Assembly: GCA_964637955.1 (NCBI GenBank)
Contig: CAZWXQ010000001.1
Coordinates: forward strand, 118,993 to 182,992
Origin: an uncultured Gammaproteobacteria bacterium
GTDB lineage: Bacteria > Patescibacteriota > Microgenomatia > Levybacterales > UBA12049
Direction: 5' to 3'
DNA: 64,000 nt
This document shows positions 14,326 to 48,667 of the stretch, in pieces. The stretch's first letter is position 1. Every line of letters begins with the position of its first letter. The translations under genes were made by a program, and so were the position numbers. Under the pieces are notes generated by a model. The model worked only from the letters and a program-made list of their open reading frames with translations, ran no database searches and was not told the origin of the DNA.

Positions 14326-15618
14326 ATGGAAAATGAAATAAAAGCACCCATAGATTACTGTTTGTATGCTCGAAAATCTACAGAAGATGATGAAAGACAA
14401 GCAATGAGTATAGATTCTCAAATTAAAGAGATGTCTGAAATGGCTTTAAAGGAAGAGATATTCATAAAAGAAATCCGACAAGAAAAGCATTCAGCGAAAA
14501 TGTCAGGGCAAAGGCCTGTTTTTAATCAGCTATTAGCAGATATAAAAAGTGGTATGTTTAGGGGAATATTAACTTGGGCGCCTGACAGGTTAAGCAGAAA
14601 TGCAGGAGATTTAGGCGTGCTTGTAGATTTAATGGATCATGGCAAGTTAACTAATATTAAAACATATACTCAGGCCTTCACAAATAGTCCTAGCGATAAG
14701 TTTTTACTCATGATTCTTTGCTCTCAAGCAAAACTCGAAAATGATCAGAAAGGAATAAATGTTAAAAGAGGGATAAGAGCCAAATGTCAGATGGGATGGA
14801 GACCTGGTGTTCCGCCAACAGGTTATTTTAATAGAACAATGAATGGGGTTAAAGATATAATCCCCGATCCTCAACGAGCTCCATTTATAACCGAAATGTT
14901 TCAAAGAGTTGCCGATGGACAAAGTGGTTGGGATATAAAAAGATGGTTTGATAAATCTGGAATGACTACTAGATCTGGAAAAAAAGTTTACTTAGGCAAT
15001 TTATATCTTATGCTGAAAAATTCATTTTATTATGGAGAATTTGAATACCCTATTAATAGTGGTAATTGGTATAAGGGAAAACATAAACCATTAATAACAA
15101 AAATTCTATTTGATAAAGTACAAAATCAGCTTATTACTTCAACTAAATCAGATTGGGGCAGTAATATTGCTCCATTCAAAGGATTATTTAGATGCGGAAC
15201 ATGTGGGAAAAAACTAATTGGCGAAGAAAAAATCAGAAAAAGAAAATGGGGAGCCCCCATAAGACATGTTTATTACCACTGTGCCCGAAACCTTAGTGAT
15301 TGCTCAGAGCCATATATAAGTGAGGAAAAATTAATAAAACAAATTCTTAGATATATTAATTTCATGAGTATCGCGCATCCTAATTTCCTCAAGCTAACAG
15401 ACCCTTTACATATAAGTTTGTTGTCATATAGCTTAATTAGAAATGAAGTACTTTATGAGCAAGATATTAATCCAAATGATCAAAAATCCGATCCGGTAAA
15501 TTTTAGTAGATATATTCTGAATAAAGGGTCCGTTGATGAAAAAAGAGACTTAGTTATGTCTTTAGGGAAGCAGATGTATATTAAAAATAAGTATTTGGTT
15601 TCCTCTGTATCTGAATAA
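14326..15618 (+). CDS. Large serine recombinase (resolvase catalytic domain YARKSTEDDERQ…, recombinase domain, zinc beta-ribbon CGTCGKK…HVYYHCAR)
   Basis: Domain organisation from translation. Confidence 0.85.
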   Translation: MENEIKAPIDYCLYARKSTEDDERQAMSIDSQIKEMSEMALKEEIFIKEIRQEKHSAKMSGQRPVFNQLLADIKSGMFRGILTWAPDRLSRNAGDLGVLVDLMDHGKLTNIKTYTQAFTNSPSDKFLLMILCSQAKLENDQKGINVKRGIRAKCQMGWRPGVPPTGYFNRTMNGVKDIIPDPQRAPFITEMFQRVADGQSGWDIKRWFDKSGMTTRSGKKVYLGNLYLMLKNSFYYGEFEYPINSGNWYKGKHKPLITKILFDKVQNQLITSTKSDWGSNIAPFKGLFRCGTCGKKLIGEEKIRKRKWGAPIRHVYYHCARNLSDCSEPYISEEKLIKQILRYINFMSIAHPNFLKLTDPLHISLLSYSLIRNEVLYEQDINPNDQKSDPVNFSRYILNKGSVDEKRDLVMSLGKQMYIKNKYLVSSVSE

Positions 15619-16766: not shown

Positions 16767-16802
16767 CTGAGAGTACCGGTCTCGAACCATTTAATCATTA
16801 TA
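16767..16802. repeat. 36-bp direct repeat copy 2 (ctgagagtaccggtctcgaaccatttaatcattata); candidate right att site
   Basis: 35/36 identity with 2040-2075. Confidence 0.6.
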
Positions 16803-24523: not shown

Positions 24524-24726
24524 ATTGATTTACTGCGTACCAGATGGAACCCGATTTATTCTTAGAAATCTATAAGCGCTTGCGCCGCTTGCTTCGTTTG
24601 GTGGTACTTCGTCGCTAAACTTTACTTGCTCCTCGCACCATTCCTTTCAGTCTTACTGCGTCGCTGCTGTGCCTTAGATGCACACCACTCCTTGACACAT
24701 TAATTTATTTATGTTCATAATAAGTT

Positions 24727-24954
24727 ATGGACAATAACACAGCACAAACACCAGCACCAGAAGCAGCGTCAGCAGCCCCAGCTGCAACACCTGCTCAGCC
24801 AGCGGCTCCTGTTGCTCCAGCCGGTACACCAGCACCTGCGGCAGCAAAGCCTGCAAAATCAATGAAGAAAATGATTATCACTGTTGTTCTAGTTCTTGCA
24901 ATTCTCGCAGTTCTAGGCGGCGTAGGTTATTTCCTCTTCACTACAATGATGTAA
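24727..24954 (+). CDS. Small Ala/Pro-rich protein with C-terminal TM helix; TTGACA-17/18-CATAAT promoter with ATG 5-6 nt downstream (leaderless-like)
   Basis: ORF plus promoter hexamers at ~24687-24716. Confidence 0.45.
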   Translation: MDNNTAQTPAPEAASAAPAATPAQPAAPVAPAGTPAPAAAKPAKSMKKMIITVVLVLAILAVLGGVGYFLFTTMM

Positions 24955-24965
24955 TCCGTTTAGGA

Positions 24966-44371: not shown

Positions 44372-45049
44372 TTATTGGCAGTTGAATTGTTGCAAACAGG
44401 CTGATTTGGCAGCTCCTGTGAGCGAATTACAAATTTTGCATTCCTGAGAGTTATCTGTAGAATTTGCAGAACTTGTAGGCGCAGTAGTAGTTTTTGTCAT
44501 AGCGTCAGTTGGCGCTGTGTTCCCAAAGCTGGTGAATTTAATTGTAGTAGGTGGAGTGAAAAGCTTGGCGTCCTCCGTCCAAGTTACACATTTAAAGTCC
44601 ATTTCTTTTTCGGGATCAAATGTATTAAATGATTCATTTTCTTGCATTTTTGAAGCAAAATCATTTACATTCATAACCATTTTTATTCCCATTGGGATAG
44701 AATCGCCCCACATATAAAATGTATCGCCTGTCCTGATCATATGAGCTACTGTTTCTTTGTTGTTAACAGTCGTTGAGATATCAGCGCGCGCGTTTTCTCC
44801 GGAAGTGTAGACTGTTCCGTTAGTATTTCCTTTTTCATTTTCAGTCGAGAATGTGCATTTTGATTTTTCACCCTTTGTTAAAAGTGCAGTTATAGAGTTT
44901 GCCATCGCATTATTTGGTGTAGGAGTGACTTGTTCTGCAACTGTGGTTACTTTATTTTTTGGTTGGGATTGGGAGTAAAGAAAAGCACCAGCTGCACCTA
45001 GTAAGATTAATACTCCCACAACTAATGCTATTATGGCCTGTTTAGTCAT
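44372..45049 (-). CDS. Secreted hypothetical protein with Cys-rich C-terminus
   Basis: N-terminal TM/signal, ORF. Confidence 0.4.
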   Translation of the reverse strand: MTKQAIIALVVGVLILLGAAGAFLYSQSQPKNKVTTVAEQVTPTPNNAMANSITALLTKGEKSKCTFSTENEKGNTNGTVYTSGENARADISTTVNNKETVAHMIRTGDTFYMWGDSIPMGIKMVMNVNDFASKMQENESFNTFDPEKEMDFKCVTWTEDAKLFTPPTTIKFTSFGNTAPTDAMTKTTTAPTSSANSTDNSQECKICNSLTGAAKSACLQQFNCQ

Positions 45050-45114: not shown

Positions 45115-45597
45115 ATGGATTCTGCGACTGAAACATTTACTGGAGAAAAAGAGATTGATGTTAGGCCTAAAGTTCAAATTGAATTCTTCGGATTTAGCCA
45201 TAATCCATTAAACTTAGATGTAGTACCGTATTTACGAAGCACATTTGAAGATCATTTAGCAAAATCACCAAATACTACTCTTTTTTTTGAAAGCGCTGAA
45301 GGTACACAGGAGGATTCTGATTTTCAAAACGAAGTTATAGAAAAATATGGGTTTAGAGCATTGCTTATATCAAGTTTAATTAATCAGAACGATGATGATA
45401 TTAGGTTGATTGGAAGTCCCGAGAACGTACAGAGGAGAATAAATGAAATTGAGACATCTATTATGAGCGGTGAACTAAGAATTGATCTTCTTCCTCTTCA
45501 AGATCTTCAAATGTATTTAATATATAGAGATCGATCAGTTAAAAGAGCTATACCCTTTTTCATTTCAAAGAGAAGCGCATTCTCCAGACGTGATTAG
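45115..45597 (+). CDS. Hypothetical protein (160 aa)
   Basis: ORF. Confidence 0.35.
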   Translation: MDSATETFTGEKEIDVRPKVQIEFFGFSHNPLNLDVVPYLRSTFEDHLAKSPNTTLFFESAEGTQEDSDFQNEVIEKYGFRALLISSLINQNDDDIRLIGSPENVQRRINEIETSIMSGELRIDLLPLQDLQMYLIYRDRSVKRAIPFFISKRSAFSRRD

Positions 45598-46144
45598 GAA
45601 AGCGCGAGGTCTTCGTCCGGAAGCTAACAGAATGTTTTCGGTTGCAGATGCTGCATGGCAGGAGGGTAGATTTGAAGTATTTAAAAAACTTGCTGATTCT
45701 TACCATAAATTATCAGTTGCAGGAGGTAGATACAGAGAAGAAGAAGCTGCTGAAATGCTTAAGAAAAAAACTAATAAATTAATGATGTCGACTGACGGTG
45801 GATCAATTTTTGTATTAATGGGTAGAAATCACTCAAGCATACTTGATCCACTAAGAAAAAAATTTAAAAAAGGGACTGTAGATTTCAAAGTATCAGGTGG
45901 TCTATCGGATTCTCTTGATAGATTAACGCCTATGCAGAGATATTTATCTATGGTAATTTTATTTAAGCTTGAGGATGAATATAACGTGCAGGAGAAAACT
46001 TTAGAATTTGGAAACAAGTTTACGGTAACTCAGGTTAAAATTGAAGAAATTGTTGCCAATTTAAAAGAAGAAGAAATTAAAGATTTATGCGAAACACAAG
46101 TTGAACTTCTTAAATTTATTAGAGAAAAAGGCTTAAACGCATGA
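45590..46144 (+). CDS. Hypothetical protein (184 aa); GTG start overlapping upstream ORF by 8 nt
   Basis: ORF. Confidence 0.35.
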   Translation: MIRKARGLRPEANRMFSVADAAWQEGRFEVFKKLADSYHKLSVAGGRYREEEAAEMLKKKTNKLMMSTDGGSIFVLMGRNHSSILDPLRKKFKKGTVDFKVSGGLSDSLDRLTPMQRYLSMVILFKLEDEYNVQEKTLEFGNKFTVTQVKIEEIVANLKEEEIKDLCETQVELLKFIREKGLNA

Positions 46145-46569
46145 AAAAAAGAGAGTCCGTAGGTAGATGCCCACTCGCTCTCTTTCTCTGCCAGCACTCA
46201 CGTCACCATCTCAATGCTTCGGATCCACAAATATTTTGCATCTCGACGGACCATCTCGTCCTTTTGTCATAACGCGGCATACTTTTACCCAGAGAAGTGA
46301 CTTCCGAGGAAGCCATCCTTAGCGGTATGCCCAGCTCTTGTTTGCCCTGCCATAGCGTACTACTTCAAACAACCTAAAGCTTAAATGCGCTAGGGGATTC
46401 CAAAACCCTTCGAAGAAAGATTTCGATTACCCCCATGCGGAGTCTATAAAGATTAGTCCGTTTAGATTGGATTGTCAATTAGTTCAAAGTATATCTCAAT
46501 ATTTCTTTTGACTTTATAAATAAAAATATCTATCTTGCATTTTTGTTCTCTTCAAATTATTATTAGGAC
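46145..46569. ncRNA. GC-rich (~50%) ORF-free block in an AT-rich genome; candidate structured ncRNA gene (tmRNA- or RNase P RNA-sized); strand and identity unresolved
   Basis: No ORF >=60 aa on either strand over ~425 bp; abundant local and long-range complementarity (e.g. AGAGAG…CUCUCU, GUAGGUAGAUGC…GCAUCU, GGAC…GUCC); minus-strand 5' segment GGGGGUAAUCGAAAUC…UUCGAAGGGUUUUGGAAUCCC is reminiscent of a tmRNA tRNA-like domain. Confidence 0.3.
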
Positions 46570-47013
46570 ATGAAAATCACTAGTCCTGCCTTTGAAGATA
46601 GCGACATGATTCCTGCTACATATACATGTGATTCAGATAACGTTAATCCCCCTCTTTTAATTTCAGATGTTCCAGAAGGGACTAAAAGCTTGGCTCTTAT
46701 TATGGATGACCCTGATGCGCCAGGTGAAGCATTCACTCATTGGATTATGTGGAATATTCCACCAGATACTACTAGGATTGAAGAAAATGATTGGGTAGAT
46801 GGAGCAGAACAAGGTATGAATGATGGTGGAGATTTAGGATACACAGGTCCATGTCCGCCGGAAGGAATTCATCATTATTATTTTAGGCTTTATGCTCTAG
46901 ATTCAGTGTTAGATTTACAAGGAGAAGTAACGCGAATGGATTTGGAAATGCAAATTAGTAGCCACATGATTGATGAAGCAGAGCTCATTGGTCTTTATAA
47001 ACTTCAATCATAG
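46570..47013 (+). CDS. YbhB/YbcL-family PEBP (Raf kinase inhibitor-like) protein
   Basis: …DDPDAPG…THW…GYTGPCPP…HHYYFRLYALD… PEBP signature. Confidence 0.8.
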   Translation: MKITSPAFEDSDMIPATYTCDSDNVNPPLLISDVPEGTKSLALIMDDPDAPGEAFTHWIMWNIPPDTTRIEENDWVDGAEQGMNDGGDLGYTGPCPPEGIHHYYFRLYALDSVLDLQGEVTRMDLEMQISSHMIDEAELIGLYKLQS

Positions 47014-47074: not shown

Positions 47075-48667
47075 ATGGAAAGAAAAGCAGCTCATGGTTA
47101 CACTCCGGGTTTAGATGCGCAGCTGGATTCGGACAGAGGATTCAGCGTGAATATAGAAGTAGAGTTATTAGCAAATGAAAGGCAAACGCTTTTTATGCTT
47201 GGTCAAGGCAATAGCTTAAATTTTGTATCAGGCCAGCTTGGTGTCGAGGTTGGCAATCTCAAAACAAATTTGAAAACAATGAGAAGTCGTTTAGGAGTAA
47301 ATACAAATCTTGGAGCTTTGAGAATGGCGATGCAGCAGAGAATTTTAAGTGCTCAAGAGATTTTGCCTGATGATTATACCGATGATAATTTTAGATATTT
47401 AACCCCTGAACAATTAGATGCTCTGAATAATTATTACGATAATCATGATCTGAAAAGCGATGAGGAGATTGCGGCTAAACTAGGTTTATCTGCGGAGGAT
47501 TTTCTTCAAGATCTTTATAGAGGTTTTGGTGTAATTAATGCAAAGACTATTTTAAACGCTGCAGTCATGATTCAAGCTCAAAGAGATAGATTAATTCCTG
47601 CATCTGATCCTGTTTCTGAGAATGAAGAAATTGGTCAGCTAAGCCCCGATTCACCTCGAGTTAGAGAAGTAAAAAGATCGATTAGCCCTAGAGAGCTTGA
47701 GGTATTTACACTTAAGGCAAAAGGATTAATAAATAAGGAAATAGCTGCATCGATGGGTGTCTCTGAGCAAACAGTTAAGAATCATGCAGCTTCTGCATTT
47801 GTTAAGCTAGGTGTTCAGTCCTCAGGGGAAGCGATAAGGCAAATTATTGGTATTGGGCTTATAGATATATCTGAATTATTGCCAGCAGAATTTGATCCTT
47901 CTGTGATGGGAGAAGTGTCAGATAAAGAAGCTGAGATTATAAAACATTTAGGGACTTCTGGGGATTCAAATGTCGCTATCGCTTTGAGGGTTGGCTCGAA
48001 TGAGAACACTGTTGGAAGTCGAATTTCAAAATCCATGAAAAAAACAGGCACTGTCAGTCGAGAGCAAATTATGGTTTTTTATCTCGGTGCAAAAAAGATA
48101 AAAGAAGAACAGGCTGTAGAGATGGGGGTAGATCCTGAATCCGTAGATCCTTTTGACTGGAGAAGAGAAGATCAGGAATATGAAATGCCATCATTGTCAC
48201 CCAGAGAGCTAGATGTTCTACGGGCTGTAAGTAGAGGTTTATCGAATGCTGAAATTGCAGGATTTTTGGGAAAATCTGAATATATGGTAAAGGTACAGAT
48301 GAGCTCTATTTTATATAAGTTAGATGCTAGGAATAGAGTAGTAGCAGTTAAGAAAGCAATTGATTTGAAGTTAGTTGACATAGGGGAAATTACAAGTGAT
48401 GAATTGGAACTAATTAATTCTCTTTCAAATAGGGAGAAAGAATTACTAGAATTAATAGCTTCAAGTGGACTTTCGAATAAAGAGCTTGCTCAACACTTGG
48501 GTATCTCAAAGTATACAGTTAACTGTCATATGTTGACCTTGTTGGGCAAGTTAGATGTAGCTAGTAGAGTTGAAGCAATGACTTTATGGATAAAAGCAAA
48601 TAGAATAATCGATTCGACTTCTGAAGCTGAACAAGATGTGGTTTATTCTTCAGAAGCAGTTATTTAG
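47075..48667 (+). CDS. Protein composed of six tandem LuxR/GerE-type HTH modules (three canonical, three degenerate)
   Basis: Repeated …SPRELEVLxLxAxGLSNKEIAxxLGxSExTVKxHxxxxxxKLxVxxRxxA… units at ~aa 30, 105, 200, 280, 370, 440. Confidence 0.6.
   Translation: MERKAAHGYTPGLDAQLDSDRGFSVNIEVELLANERQTLFMLGQGNSLNFVSGQLGVEVGNLKTNLKTMRSRLGVNTNLGALRMAMQQRILSAQEILPDDYTDDNFRYLTPEQLDALNNYYDNHDLKSDEEIAAKLGLSAEDFLQDLYRGFGVINAKTILNAAVMIQAQRDRLIPASDPVSENEEIGQLSPDSPRVREVKRSISPRELEVFTLKAKGLINKEIAASMGVSEQTVKNHAASAFVKLGVQSSGEAIRQIIGIGLIDISELLPAEFDPSVMGEVSDKEAEIIKHLGTSGDSNVAIALRVGSNENTVGSRISKSMKKTGTVSREQIMVFYLGAKKIKEEQAVEMGVDPESVDPFDWRREDQEYEMPSLSPRELDVLRAVSRGLSNAEIAGFLGKSEYMVKVQMSSILYKLDARNRVVAVKKAIDLKLVDIGEITSDELELINSLSNREKELLELIASSGLSNKELAQHLGISKYTVNCHMLTLLGKLDVASRVEAMTLWIKANRIIDSTSEAEQDVVYSSEAVI

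Follow-up and report, generated by a model that had tools for sequence, protein, structure and literature searches.

Large orphan RNAs with complex folds are rare, and several of them have proved to be ribozymes or components of ribonucleoproteins (RNPs). Bacteria of the Candidate Phyla Radiation (CPR, or Patescibacteria) have very small genomes and have hardly been cultivated, and to our knowledge their noncoding RNA repertoire is essentially unexplored. The described systems closest to the RNA reported here are the orphan RNAs recovered from GC-rich intergenic regions, namely the raiA motif, OLE, ROOL, GOLLD and HEARO (PMC6429828, PMC8632094, PMC11109978). Here we analyze a structured RNA of about 300 nucleotides (nt) encoded at positions 46144-46445 on the minus strand of a 64,000-nt stretch of contig CAZWXQ010000001.1 (assembly GCA_964637955.1), hereafter the window. 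Like those RNAs, it occupies a long GC-rich intergenic region of an AT-rich genome, folds into multiple helices, with stems that covary and junctions and loops that do not vary, is a stand-alone gene lacking an obvious cis target and has a patchy, accessory distribution. Unlike them, it has been seen in only about six genomes of one CPR clade, and it matches none of their Rfam 15 families. It is also smaller than OLE, ROOL and GOLLD, and it lacks an associated protein gene such as those of OLE (OAP) and HEARO (IscB). Our survey of the literature on GC-rich intergenic-region discovery and on Patescibacteria RNAs found no report of it, and on sequence comparison it is a new, so far undescribed RNA family.

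Composition and strand of the locus

The RNA lies in a gap (46145-46569) that opens after the stop codon of a plus-strand gene (45590-46144) and closes where a PEBP-family gene (46570-47013) starts. A first-pass annotation of the window had described this gap as a GC-rich block of about 425 bp that is free of open reading frames (ORFs) and rich in complementary segments, and had proposed that it holds a structured noncoding RNA gene that could not be classified. The block is indeed ORF-free, with no ORF longer than 55 amino acids (aa) in 46145-46569, but the GC enrichment is confined to about 300 of the 425 bp. GC content is 48% over 46144-46445 compared with a window average of 35.2%, and 46-51% over 46150-46450 compared with 24-35% in the flanks, whereas the remaining 124 bp (46446-46569) are AT-rich (24-25% GC) and carry two back-to-back promoters. 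The claim that this is the largest coding-free, GC-enriched segment of the window stands. The only other GC-rich gap (24524-24965, 46% GC) is accounted for by an Ala/Pro-rich plus-strand ORF of 75 aa (24727-24954), which encodes a C-terminal transmembrane segment and is served by a TTGACA promoter of its own, and no fold signal was detected on either strand in the 170 bp upstream of that ORF (24530-24700).

Self-complementarity exceeded chance on the minus strand only. The minus-strand fold has a predicted free energy of −106.8 kcal/mol (z = −3.98), which none of 100 shuffled sequences equaled, whereas the plus-strand fold (−67.8 kcal/mol, z = −0.08) is no better than expected from shuffling. 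Because the fold beats shuffled sequences on the minus strand alone, we take this to be the RNA strand. Both strings quoted in the first-pass annotation (GGGGGUAAUCGAAAUC... and GCAAAC...) are present on it. Among homologs the RNA carries indels of 1, 2, 4 and 11 nt and a hairpin apex of variable length, which indicates that the region is noncoding. Conserved small ORFs within the RNA were considered and ruled out because these indels are not multiples of three; the sole ATG-initiated ORF on the RNA strand is 37 aa long and begins in the variable apex.

Consensus fold and sequence conservation

Contigs of relatives (designated here by L-numbers) were obtained through relatives of the PEBP protein and through a PNPase at least 90% identical, and a consensus structure was computed with RNAalifold from six sequences, those of the window and of five full homologs in metagenomic genomes, all from one narrow clade. 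The consensus contains 95 pairs in 13 helices. Standard pairing is retained in 95.6% of alignment cells, a share that falls to 44-54% once the 3' partners are displaced by 1-3 columns, and both-sided changes occur in 24 pairs, compared with 2-7 in these displaced controls. In 500 shuffles, pairing, double-change counts and covariation score never reached the values observed. A shared fold combined with compensatory changes above controls, which is what distinguishes a new RNA family, was thus found in the six sequences.

The molecule begins with a single-stranded tail, AGACUCC in the window ((R)ACUCC in general; 46439..46445), in which ACUCCG is unpaired and invariant in all six sequences, making this tail a candidate seed or tertiary partner. 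It is followed by a 5' hairpin (H1-H2-H3, 46389..46438) with two compensatory pairs in H2 and four in H3, and then by the invariant junction YAGCGC; in L085 the sequence of this hairpin has mostly been replaced while its pairing is retained. H4 (46383..46388 with 46194-46199), in which the 5' strand GCAUUU pairs with GAGUGC, closes the core junction with six pairs. It is paired in 100% of cells and, having a single U-A/U-G change in a nearly invariant sequence, is supported by pairing and not by covariation. The H5 hairpin (46334..46380) comprises 18 pairs, seven of them compensatory and 96% of cells paired, around a conserved internal loop (GAA / GGCAGGR). The next hairpin, H6/H7 (46276..46331), bears CUCUGGGG.AAAGU on its 3' side; five of the seven H6 pairs show compensatory changes with 100% pairing, and the apex (46297-46314) is variable, being shorter in four homologs, where 11 alignment columns are absent.

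The core domain (46200..46275) is delimited by H8 (GCGUUAUGA / UGGUGACGU; 46267-75 with 46200-08; three compensatory pairs), which encloses the joining segment J8/9 (CAAAA), the invariant hairpin H9 (GGAC-GAGAUG-GUCC) and H10/H11, with two compensatory pairs in H10. After a linker, UGGCA, the molecule ends in a 3' hairpin (H12/H13) and a U-tract (46145..46188) that together form an intrinsic terminator. The upper stem and the loop CAUCUA of this hairpin are conserved, and H13 contains one compensatory change (G-C to A-U). At the level of whole helices, H4, H9 and H12 are nearly invariant. H4, H5, H6/7 and H8 meet in a four-way junction, and since the 3' strands of H4, H8 and H10 are contiguous these helices can stack as one rod. 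In the model, the rod H4-H8-H10-H11 would span about 25 bp, with a continuous 3' strand and three side hairpins on the 5' strand. The loops of H9 (AGAUG) and H13 (CAUCU) are complementary to each other, and both are invariant.

In total, 160 of the 302 positions are invariant among the six sequences, including 54 of the 114 unpaired positions. Invariance extends to the junctions and loops (ACUCCG, YAGCGC, GGCAGG, CAAAA, GAGAUG and CAUCUA), whereas the helices covary, a pattern typical of RNAs with tertiary structure rather than of small RNAs (sRNAs) built from a seed and a terminator. The RNA of L083 is 90% identical to that of the window and the RNA of L091 is 96% identical, while the corresponding PEBP coding DNA is only 80% and 76% identical, respectively, and the downstream 225-aa gene described below is 77% identical in L083. 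In more distant genomes RNA identity (73-75%) equals that of PEBP and exceeds that of the 225-aa gene (64-67%). Because the fold is held by compensatory mutations and is better conserved than the neighboring proteins, selection must be acting on a function of the RNA itself.

Promoter, terminator and downstream gene

Upstream of the RNA on the same strand lie a −35 box (TTGACA, 46473..46478) and a −10 box (TAATCT, 46450..46455) separated by a 17-nt spacer, both invariant in six of six homologs. From these motifs, transcription is predicted to start at approximately 46444/46443, 6-7 nt past the −10 box, and it is at this same distance, directly after the −10 box, that conservation of the RNA sequence sets in. 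All homologs end in an intrinsic terminator consisting of an 11-bp stem and U6-7 (U7 in the window). The gene (46144..46445, minus strand), taken to run from the predicted start through the U-tract, is supported by covariation, fold and covariance-model score. Read from these motifs, the σ70-type promoter (TTGACA-17-TAATCT) and the intrinsic terminator are those of the RNA gene itself, and a discrete transcript is predicted from them and from their invariance.

The syntenic downstream neighbor of the RNA in relatives is a minus-strand gene for a secreted or membrane-anchored protein, which in the window encodes 225 aa (44372..45049). It has its own promoter (TTGACW-17-TARAAT), which ends 6 nt before the ATG and is conserved also in genomes that lack the RNA. 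Such a start is of the leaderless type, which is frequent in the window; most window genes have no Shine-Dalgarno (SD) sequence and carry, 6-8 nt ahead of the ATG, a TAnAAT box. Two plus-strand orphan genes (160 and 184 aa, 45115..46144) lie between the RNA terminator and the 225-aa gene. They are convergent to the RNA, do not belong to its transcription unit and are missing from the syntenic loci of all relatives. Given the separate promoter of the downstream gene and the two convergent genes in between, we consider the RNA an independent gene rather than a leader, although the two-gene insertion in the window may be recent.

Comparison with known RNA families

A search of the whole window with Rfam 15 (4227 families) at gathering thresholds gave no hit. 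At E≤10, the only match in 45900-46800 was a meaningless one to a lncRNA family, and no family, including transfer-messenger RNA (tmRNA), RNase P RNA, signal recognition particle (SRP) RNA and 6S RNA, matched the RNA at four homologous loci. The lone tmRNA-model match among those loci (14 bits, L090 3421-3494) lies off the RNA. ARAGORN called no tRNA and no tmRNA gene over the 64 kb.

The first-pass annotation had suggested a divergent tmRNA or RNase P RNA, an identity that neither Rfam nor ARAGORN nor motif scans bore out. The RNA resembles tmRNA (SsrA; RF00023 and permuted forms) in its size, its G-rich 5' end and a short ORF-like stretch starting with GCA, but it lacks a tRNA-like domain. 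The 5' segment likened to such a domain is a simple H2/H3 hairpin, no tRNA T-arm motif was found within the RNA (the window-wide count being at chance level), and the only T-arm-like 11-mer of the region is on the wrong strand, has two mismatches and occurs at chance frequency. The 3' end is that of a terminator, an 11-bp stem followed by a U-tract. The stretch proposed as a tag (ANKSWAYR*; GCA AAC AAG AGC UGG GCA UAC CGC UAA) covers the last part of H5 together with the 5' strand of H6, the helix in which five of seven pairs are compensatory. In L085 a 2-nt insertion puts it out of frame, and a tag at this place is not supported.

RNase P RNA (RF00010/RF00011) is similar in size class, has a branched GC-rich fold and shares with our RNA an AAAGU block like part of the conserved region CR-I. 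No match to CR-I (GAGGAAAGUCC) with up to two mismatches was present inside 46144-46445, however, and the window-wide count was at chance. The CR-I/CR-V pairing that forms the long-range P4 helix of RNase P RNA is likewise missing, the AAAGU block pairing locally with the 5' strand of H6, and no RNase P model in Rfam (types A, B, archaeal and T) matched at E≤10. Absence from sister genomes at this locus would also be unexpected for an essential RNA such as RNase P RNA. The locus should therefore be labeled as a noncoding RNA gene and not as tmRNA or RNase P RNA.

Other candidates fared no better. For SRP RNA there was no Rfam hit at E≤10 and no hairpin of the domain IV (helix 8) type in the consensus fold. 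For 6S RNA there was again no Rfam hit, and the fold branches at one four-way and one three-way junction, the 3' strand of its rod being fully paired without a bubble. A riboswitch or T-box leader is not supported, given the downstream gene's own promoter, the intervening genes and the absence of any Rfam riboswitch or T-box match. Resemblances to glmS, T-box, ykkC and group I elements were rejected, since they amount to short strings whose structural context does not fit and have no Rfam support.

One further class deserves comparison because its members escape the usual detection tools: tRNA genes of Patescibacteria that contain group I introns are structured RNA genes of about 300 nt and are reported to be missed by both ARAGORN and RF00028 (PMC13011429). 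The phylum-level setting is the same, but the window RNA cannot form an acceptor stem, since the complement of its 5' end, CGGAGU(C), is missing from the RNA. It has no T-loop, ARAGORN was negative, and it has no 5' exon because the conserved block begins right at the promoter.

Distribution among relatives

The PEBP relatives are graded in identity from 84% to 60%, and the 60% relative belongs to the Microgenomates group bacterium GW2011_GWA2_37_6, from which we infer that the RNA-bearing clade belongs to the CPR/Patescibacteria. A gene block is conserved in the order RNase J, Gmad2, small ORF, secreted protein of 218-230 aa, gap, PEBP and HhH-GPD glycosylase. The RNA occupies this gap, on the same strand as the 225-aa gene, in L083, L085, L090, L091 and L092, and a partial copy is present in L093. 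A covariance model of the RNA (R1) scored 319 bits in the window and 266-328 bits at five other loci, but at most 16 bits outside the members across about 1 Mb of sequence.

In L086 (with its duplicates L087 and L088), L089, L102 and L103 the gap is only 86-245 bp long and contains just two back-to-back promoters. A filter-free covariance-model search of 20 kb of L086 found nothing above 5 bits. No copy of the RNA was present in 80 PEBP loci from many phyla (best identity 54-55%). A metagenome scan with AGAGAGCGAGTNNGCATCTA returned seven chance matches and no homolog, and scans of viral contigs and BLAST searches against phage and plasmid collections likewise found no homolog. A synteny approach through the 184-aa and 530-aa neighbors yielded no homologs, as both proteins are orphans. 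In these searches the RNA family was found only in one narrow clade, probably within Microgenomates/Patescibacteria. Because sister genomes lack the RNA at the syntenic site, it is also probably accessory rather than essential; in the sister genomes the searches covered the syntenic loci and, for L086, 20 kb.

Two features of the RNA-less loci may be recorded here. At the RNA-less site of L086 (9800-9960, minus strand) there is an unrelated hairpin, about 80 nt long, in which a GCCCCGCACAAAC motif recurs. In L089 (ENA contig_10310) the conserved genes are almost all broken up into several short ORFs, which probably reflects a frameshift-rich long-read assembly and not pseudogenization.

Possible functions of the RNA

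The reading we favor, and hold to be reasonably probable, is that of a free-standing, trans-acting structured RNA of about 300 nt from an undescribed family that works with protein partners. The RNA would act in trans as a stable, compactly folded molecule and would most likely serve as a protein-binding scaffold or regulator in an RNP rather than as an antisense RNA. A putative kissing contact between the H9 loop (AGAUG) and the terminator loop (CAUCU) would probably lock the fold. The resemblance to RNP scaffolds and ribozyme-like RNAs lies in a constraint that spans nearly the whole molecule, in invariant junctions and loops and in a terminator hairpin whose sequence is conserved. Several points weigh against this reading. 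The scaffold role is suggested solely by the style of conservation, and the case for transcription consists of the invariant promoter and terminator motifs. Neither a partner protein nor a gene consistently linked to the RNA was found, and the neighboring genes vary among lineages. The kissing loop and the proposed role of the 5' tail concern invariant bases, which are beyond the reach of covariation. H7 shows no compensatory change and is paired in only 85% of cells, and its 3' strand (UCUCUG) has an equally good pairing partner in CAGRGA, which lies at the base of the terminator. Finally, the six full sequences come from one narrow clade, and some of the covariation counts reflect shared ancestry.

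A bolder possibility is that the RNA is the founding member of an undescribed class of complex-folded RNAs of an ultra-small CPR lineage, with a catalytic function or a part in an RNP machine. The invariant junctions and loops, together with a compact core of several junctions on which the conserved hairpin of the terminator would dock, point beyond regulation and could reflect a ribozyme or the RNA subunit of an enzyme yet to be recognized, but we consider such a class rather unlikely, and a catalytic role for the RNA in particular is distinctly doubtful. The six-sequence alignment and covariance model nevertheless provide a handle for finding further members and for testing function, even though the narrow distribution and the lack of a functional clue limit the immediate impact of the family.

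A simpler alternative to a protein-bound RNA is a base-pairing sRNA, in which the 5' ACUCCG (similar to an anti-SD sequence) or another exposed loop would pair with mRNAs while the body and terminator stabilize the molecule. Such an sRNA would be expected to have what is seen here, namely its own promoter, a Rho-independent terminator with a U-tail and, at the predicted 5' end, an unpaired and invariant ACUCCG. The near-complete constraint on about 95 pairs and on the junctions, however, far exceeds what a seed requires, most window genes are SD-less and seemingly leaderless and would offer few targets to an anti-SD seed, and no extended complementarity was identified. It is therefore unlikely that the RNA acts by base pairing with mRNAs. 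Alternatively, the RNA might be a cis-acting leader of the 218-230-aa secreted-protein gene, either riboswitch-like or a protein-responsive attenuator, in which the terminator competes with the UCUCUG-CAGRGA pairing. In five of six lineages that gene comes next after the RNA in the same orientation, at a distance of only 41-61 nt in L083, L085, L090 and L092 and similarly close in L091, and the alternative 6-bp pairing between the 3' strand of H7 and the 5' base of the terminator can form in six of six sequences. However, the retention of the gene's own promoter in relatives without the RNA argues against a leader, as does, more weakly given that the insertion may be recent, the presence of two convergent genes between the RNA and this gene in the window although the RNA is 96% identical to that of L091. 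The invariant terminator loop and upper stem would also be unusual for an expression platform, and the linkage amounts to one synteny block in one clade rather than a repeated, independent association. A cis-acting role is thus decidedly improbable.

Two further explanations are still harder to reconcile with the data. A highly divergent housekeeping RNA (tmRNA, RNase P RNA, SRP RNA or 6S RNA) would fit the size of the RNA and its GC-richness within an AT-rich genome, as is usual for stable RNAs, and none of these RNAs was found elsewhere in the 64 kb. In addition, two short strings resemble known elements: GGGGAAAGU resembles the RNase P CR-I sequence GAGGAAAGU, and AGAUGGUGAC resembles the E. 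coli sequence AGAUGAAUGAC. Yet the Rfam searches at E≤10 (900 nt of the window and the four homologous loci) and ARAGORN were negative, the CR-I match is missing, the 3' end is a terminator hairpin without an acceptor or T-arm, the tag frame is not conserved, AAAGU pairs locally in H6, and the fold is branched instead of being a rod with a central bubble of the 6S type. Sister genomes moreover lack the RNA at the syntenic site and, in one case, in the 20-kb stretch searched without filters. A housekeeping identity is accordingly very improbable. The first-pass annotation had kept a decayed gene remnant as its fallback, and nonfunctional DNA of this kind, or a foreign GC-rich fragment, would suit the variable spot in which the RNA lies, to either side of which different lineages have gained orphan genes. 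This explanation is practically eliminated by the 24 compensatory pairs, and the invariant promoter and terminator, the strand-specific folding and a level of conservation above that of neighboring coding DNA all contradict it. By contrast, the proposal of a structured noncoding RNA gene on the minus strand that belongs to no known class is borne out by conservation, covariation and the gene's own promoter and terminator.

Neighboring genes and other features of the window

The neighborhood of the RNA and PEBP looks like an insertion hot spot, with three orphan genes in the window (160, 184 and 530 aa). The 530-aa protein, encoded at 47075-48667, contains three LuxR helix-turn-helix domains, and its gene is missing from the syntenic loci of all relatives. 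Searches for homologs of the 184-aa (45590-46144) and 530-aa proteins among 5.8 billion proteins returned self-matches only. In three relatives a gene of 238-286 aa, divergent from the RNA, lies between the RNA promoter and PEBP (L083 18303-19019, L090 4873-5709 and L092 4170-5030). These genes (238, 278 and 286 aa) have no Pfam match, are poorly related to one another and are missing from the window as well as from L085 and L091. The proteins of L090 and L092 can be aligned from end to end, and that of L083, which is basic with an Arg-rich N-terminus, is only 15-27% identical to both.

Elsewhere in the window, a 36-bp direct repeat (GAGAGT[C/A]CCGGTCTCGAACCATTTAATCATTATA; 35 of 36 positions identical) at 2040-2075 and 16767-16802 brackets about 14.7 kb that encode a Cu-ATPase, a DsbD-like protein, a ParB-methylase and a serine recombinase (14326-15618). 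The arrangement looks like that of an integrated element between its attL and attR sites. On the minus strand the repeat includes a T-arm-like GGTTCGAGACC, yet ARAGORN calls no tRNA. L083 (1-600) runs a ClpB-like gene straight into a Zn-ribbon gene, compared with approximately 1987-23986 in the window, so that about 22 kb of the window are extra relative to L083 and are probably mobile DNA. The few strong AAGGAGG sites of the window cluster in an island at 6.6-13.6 kb.
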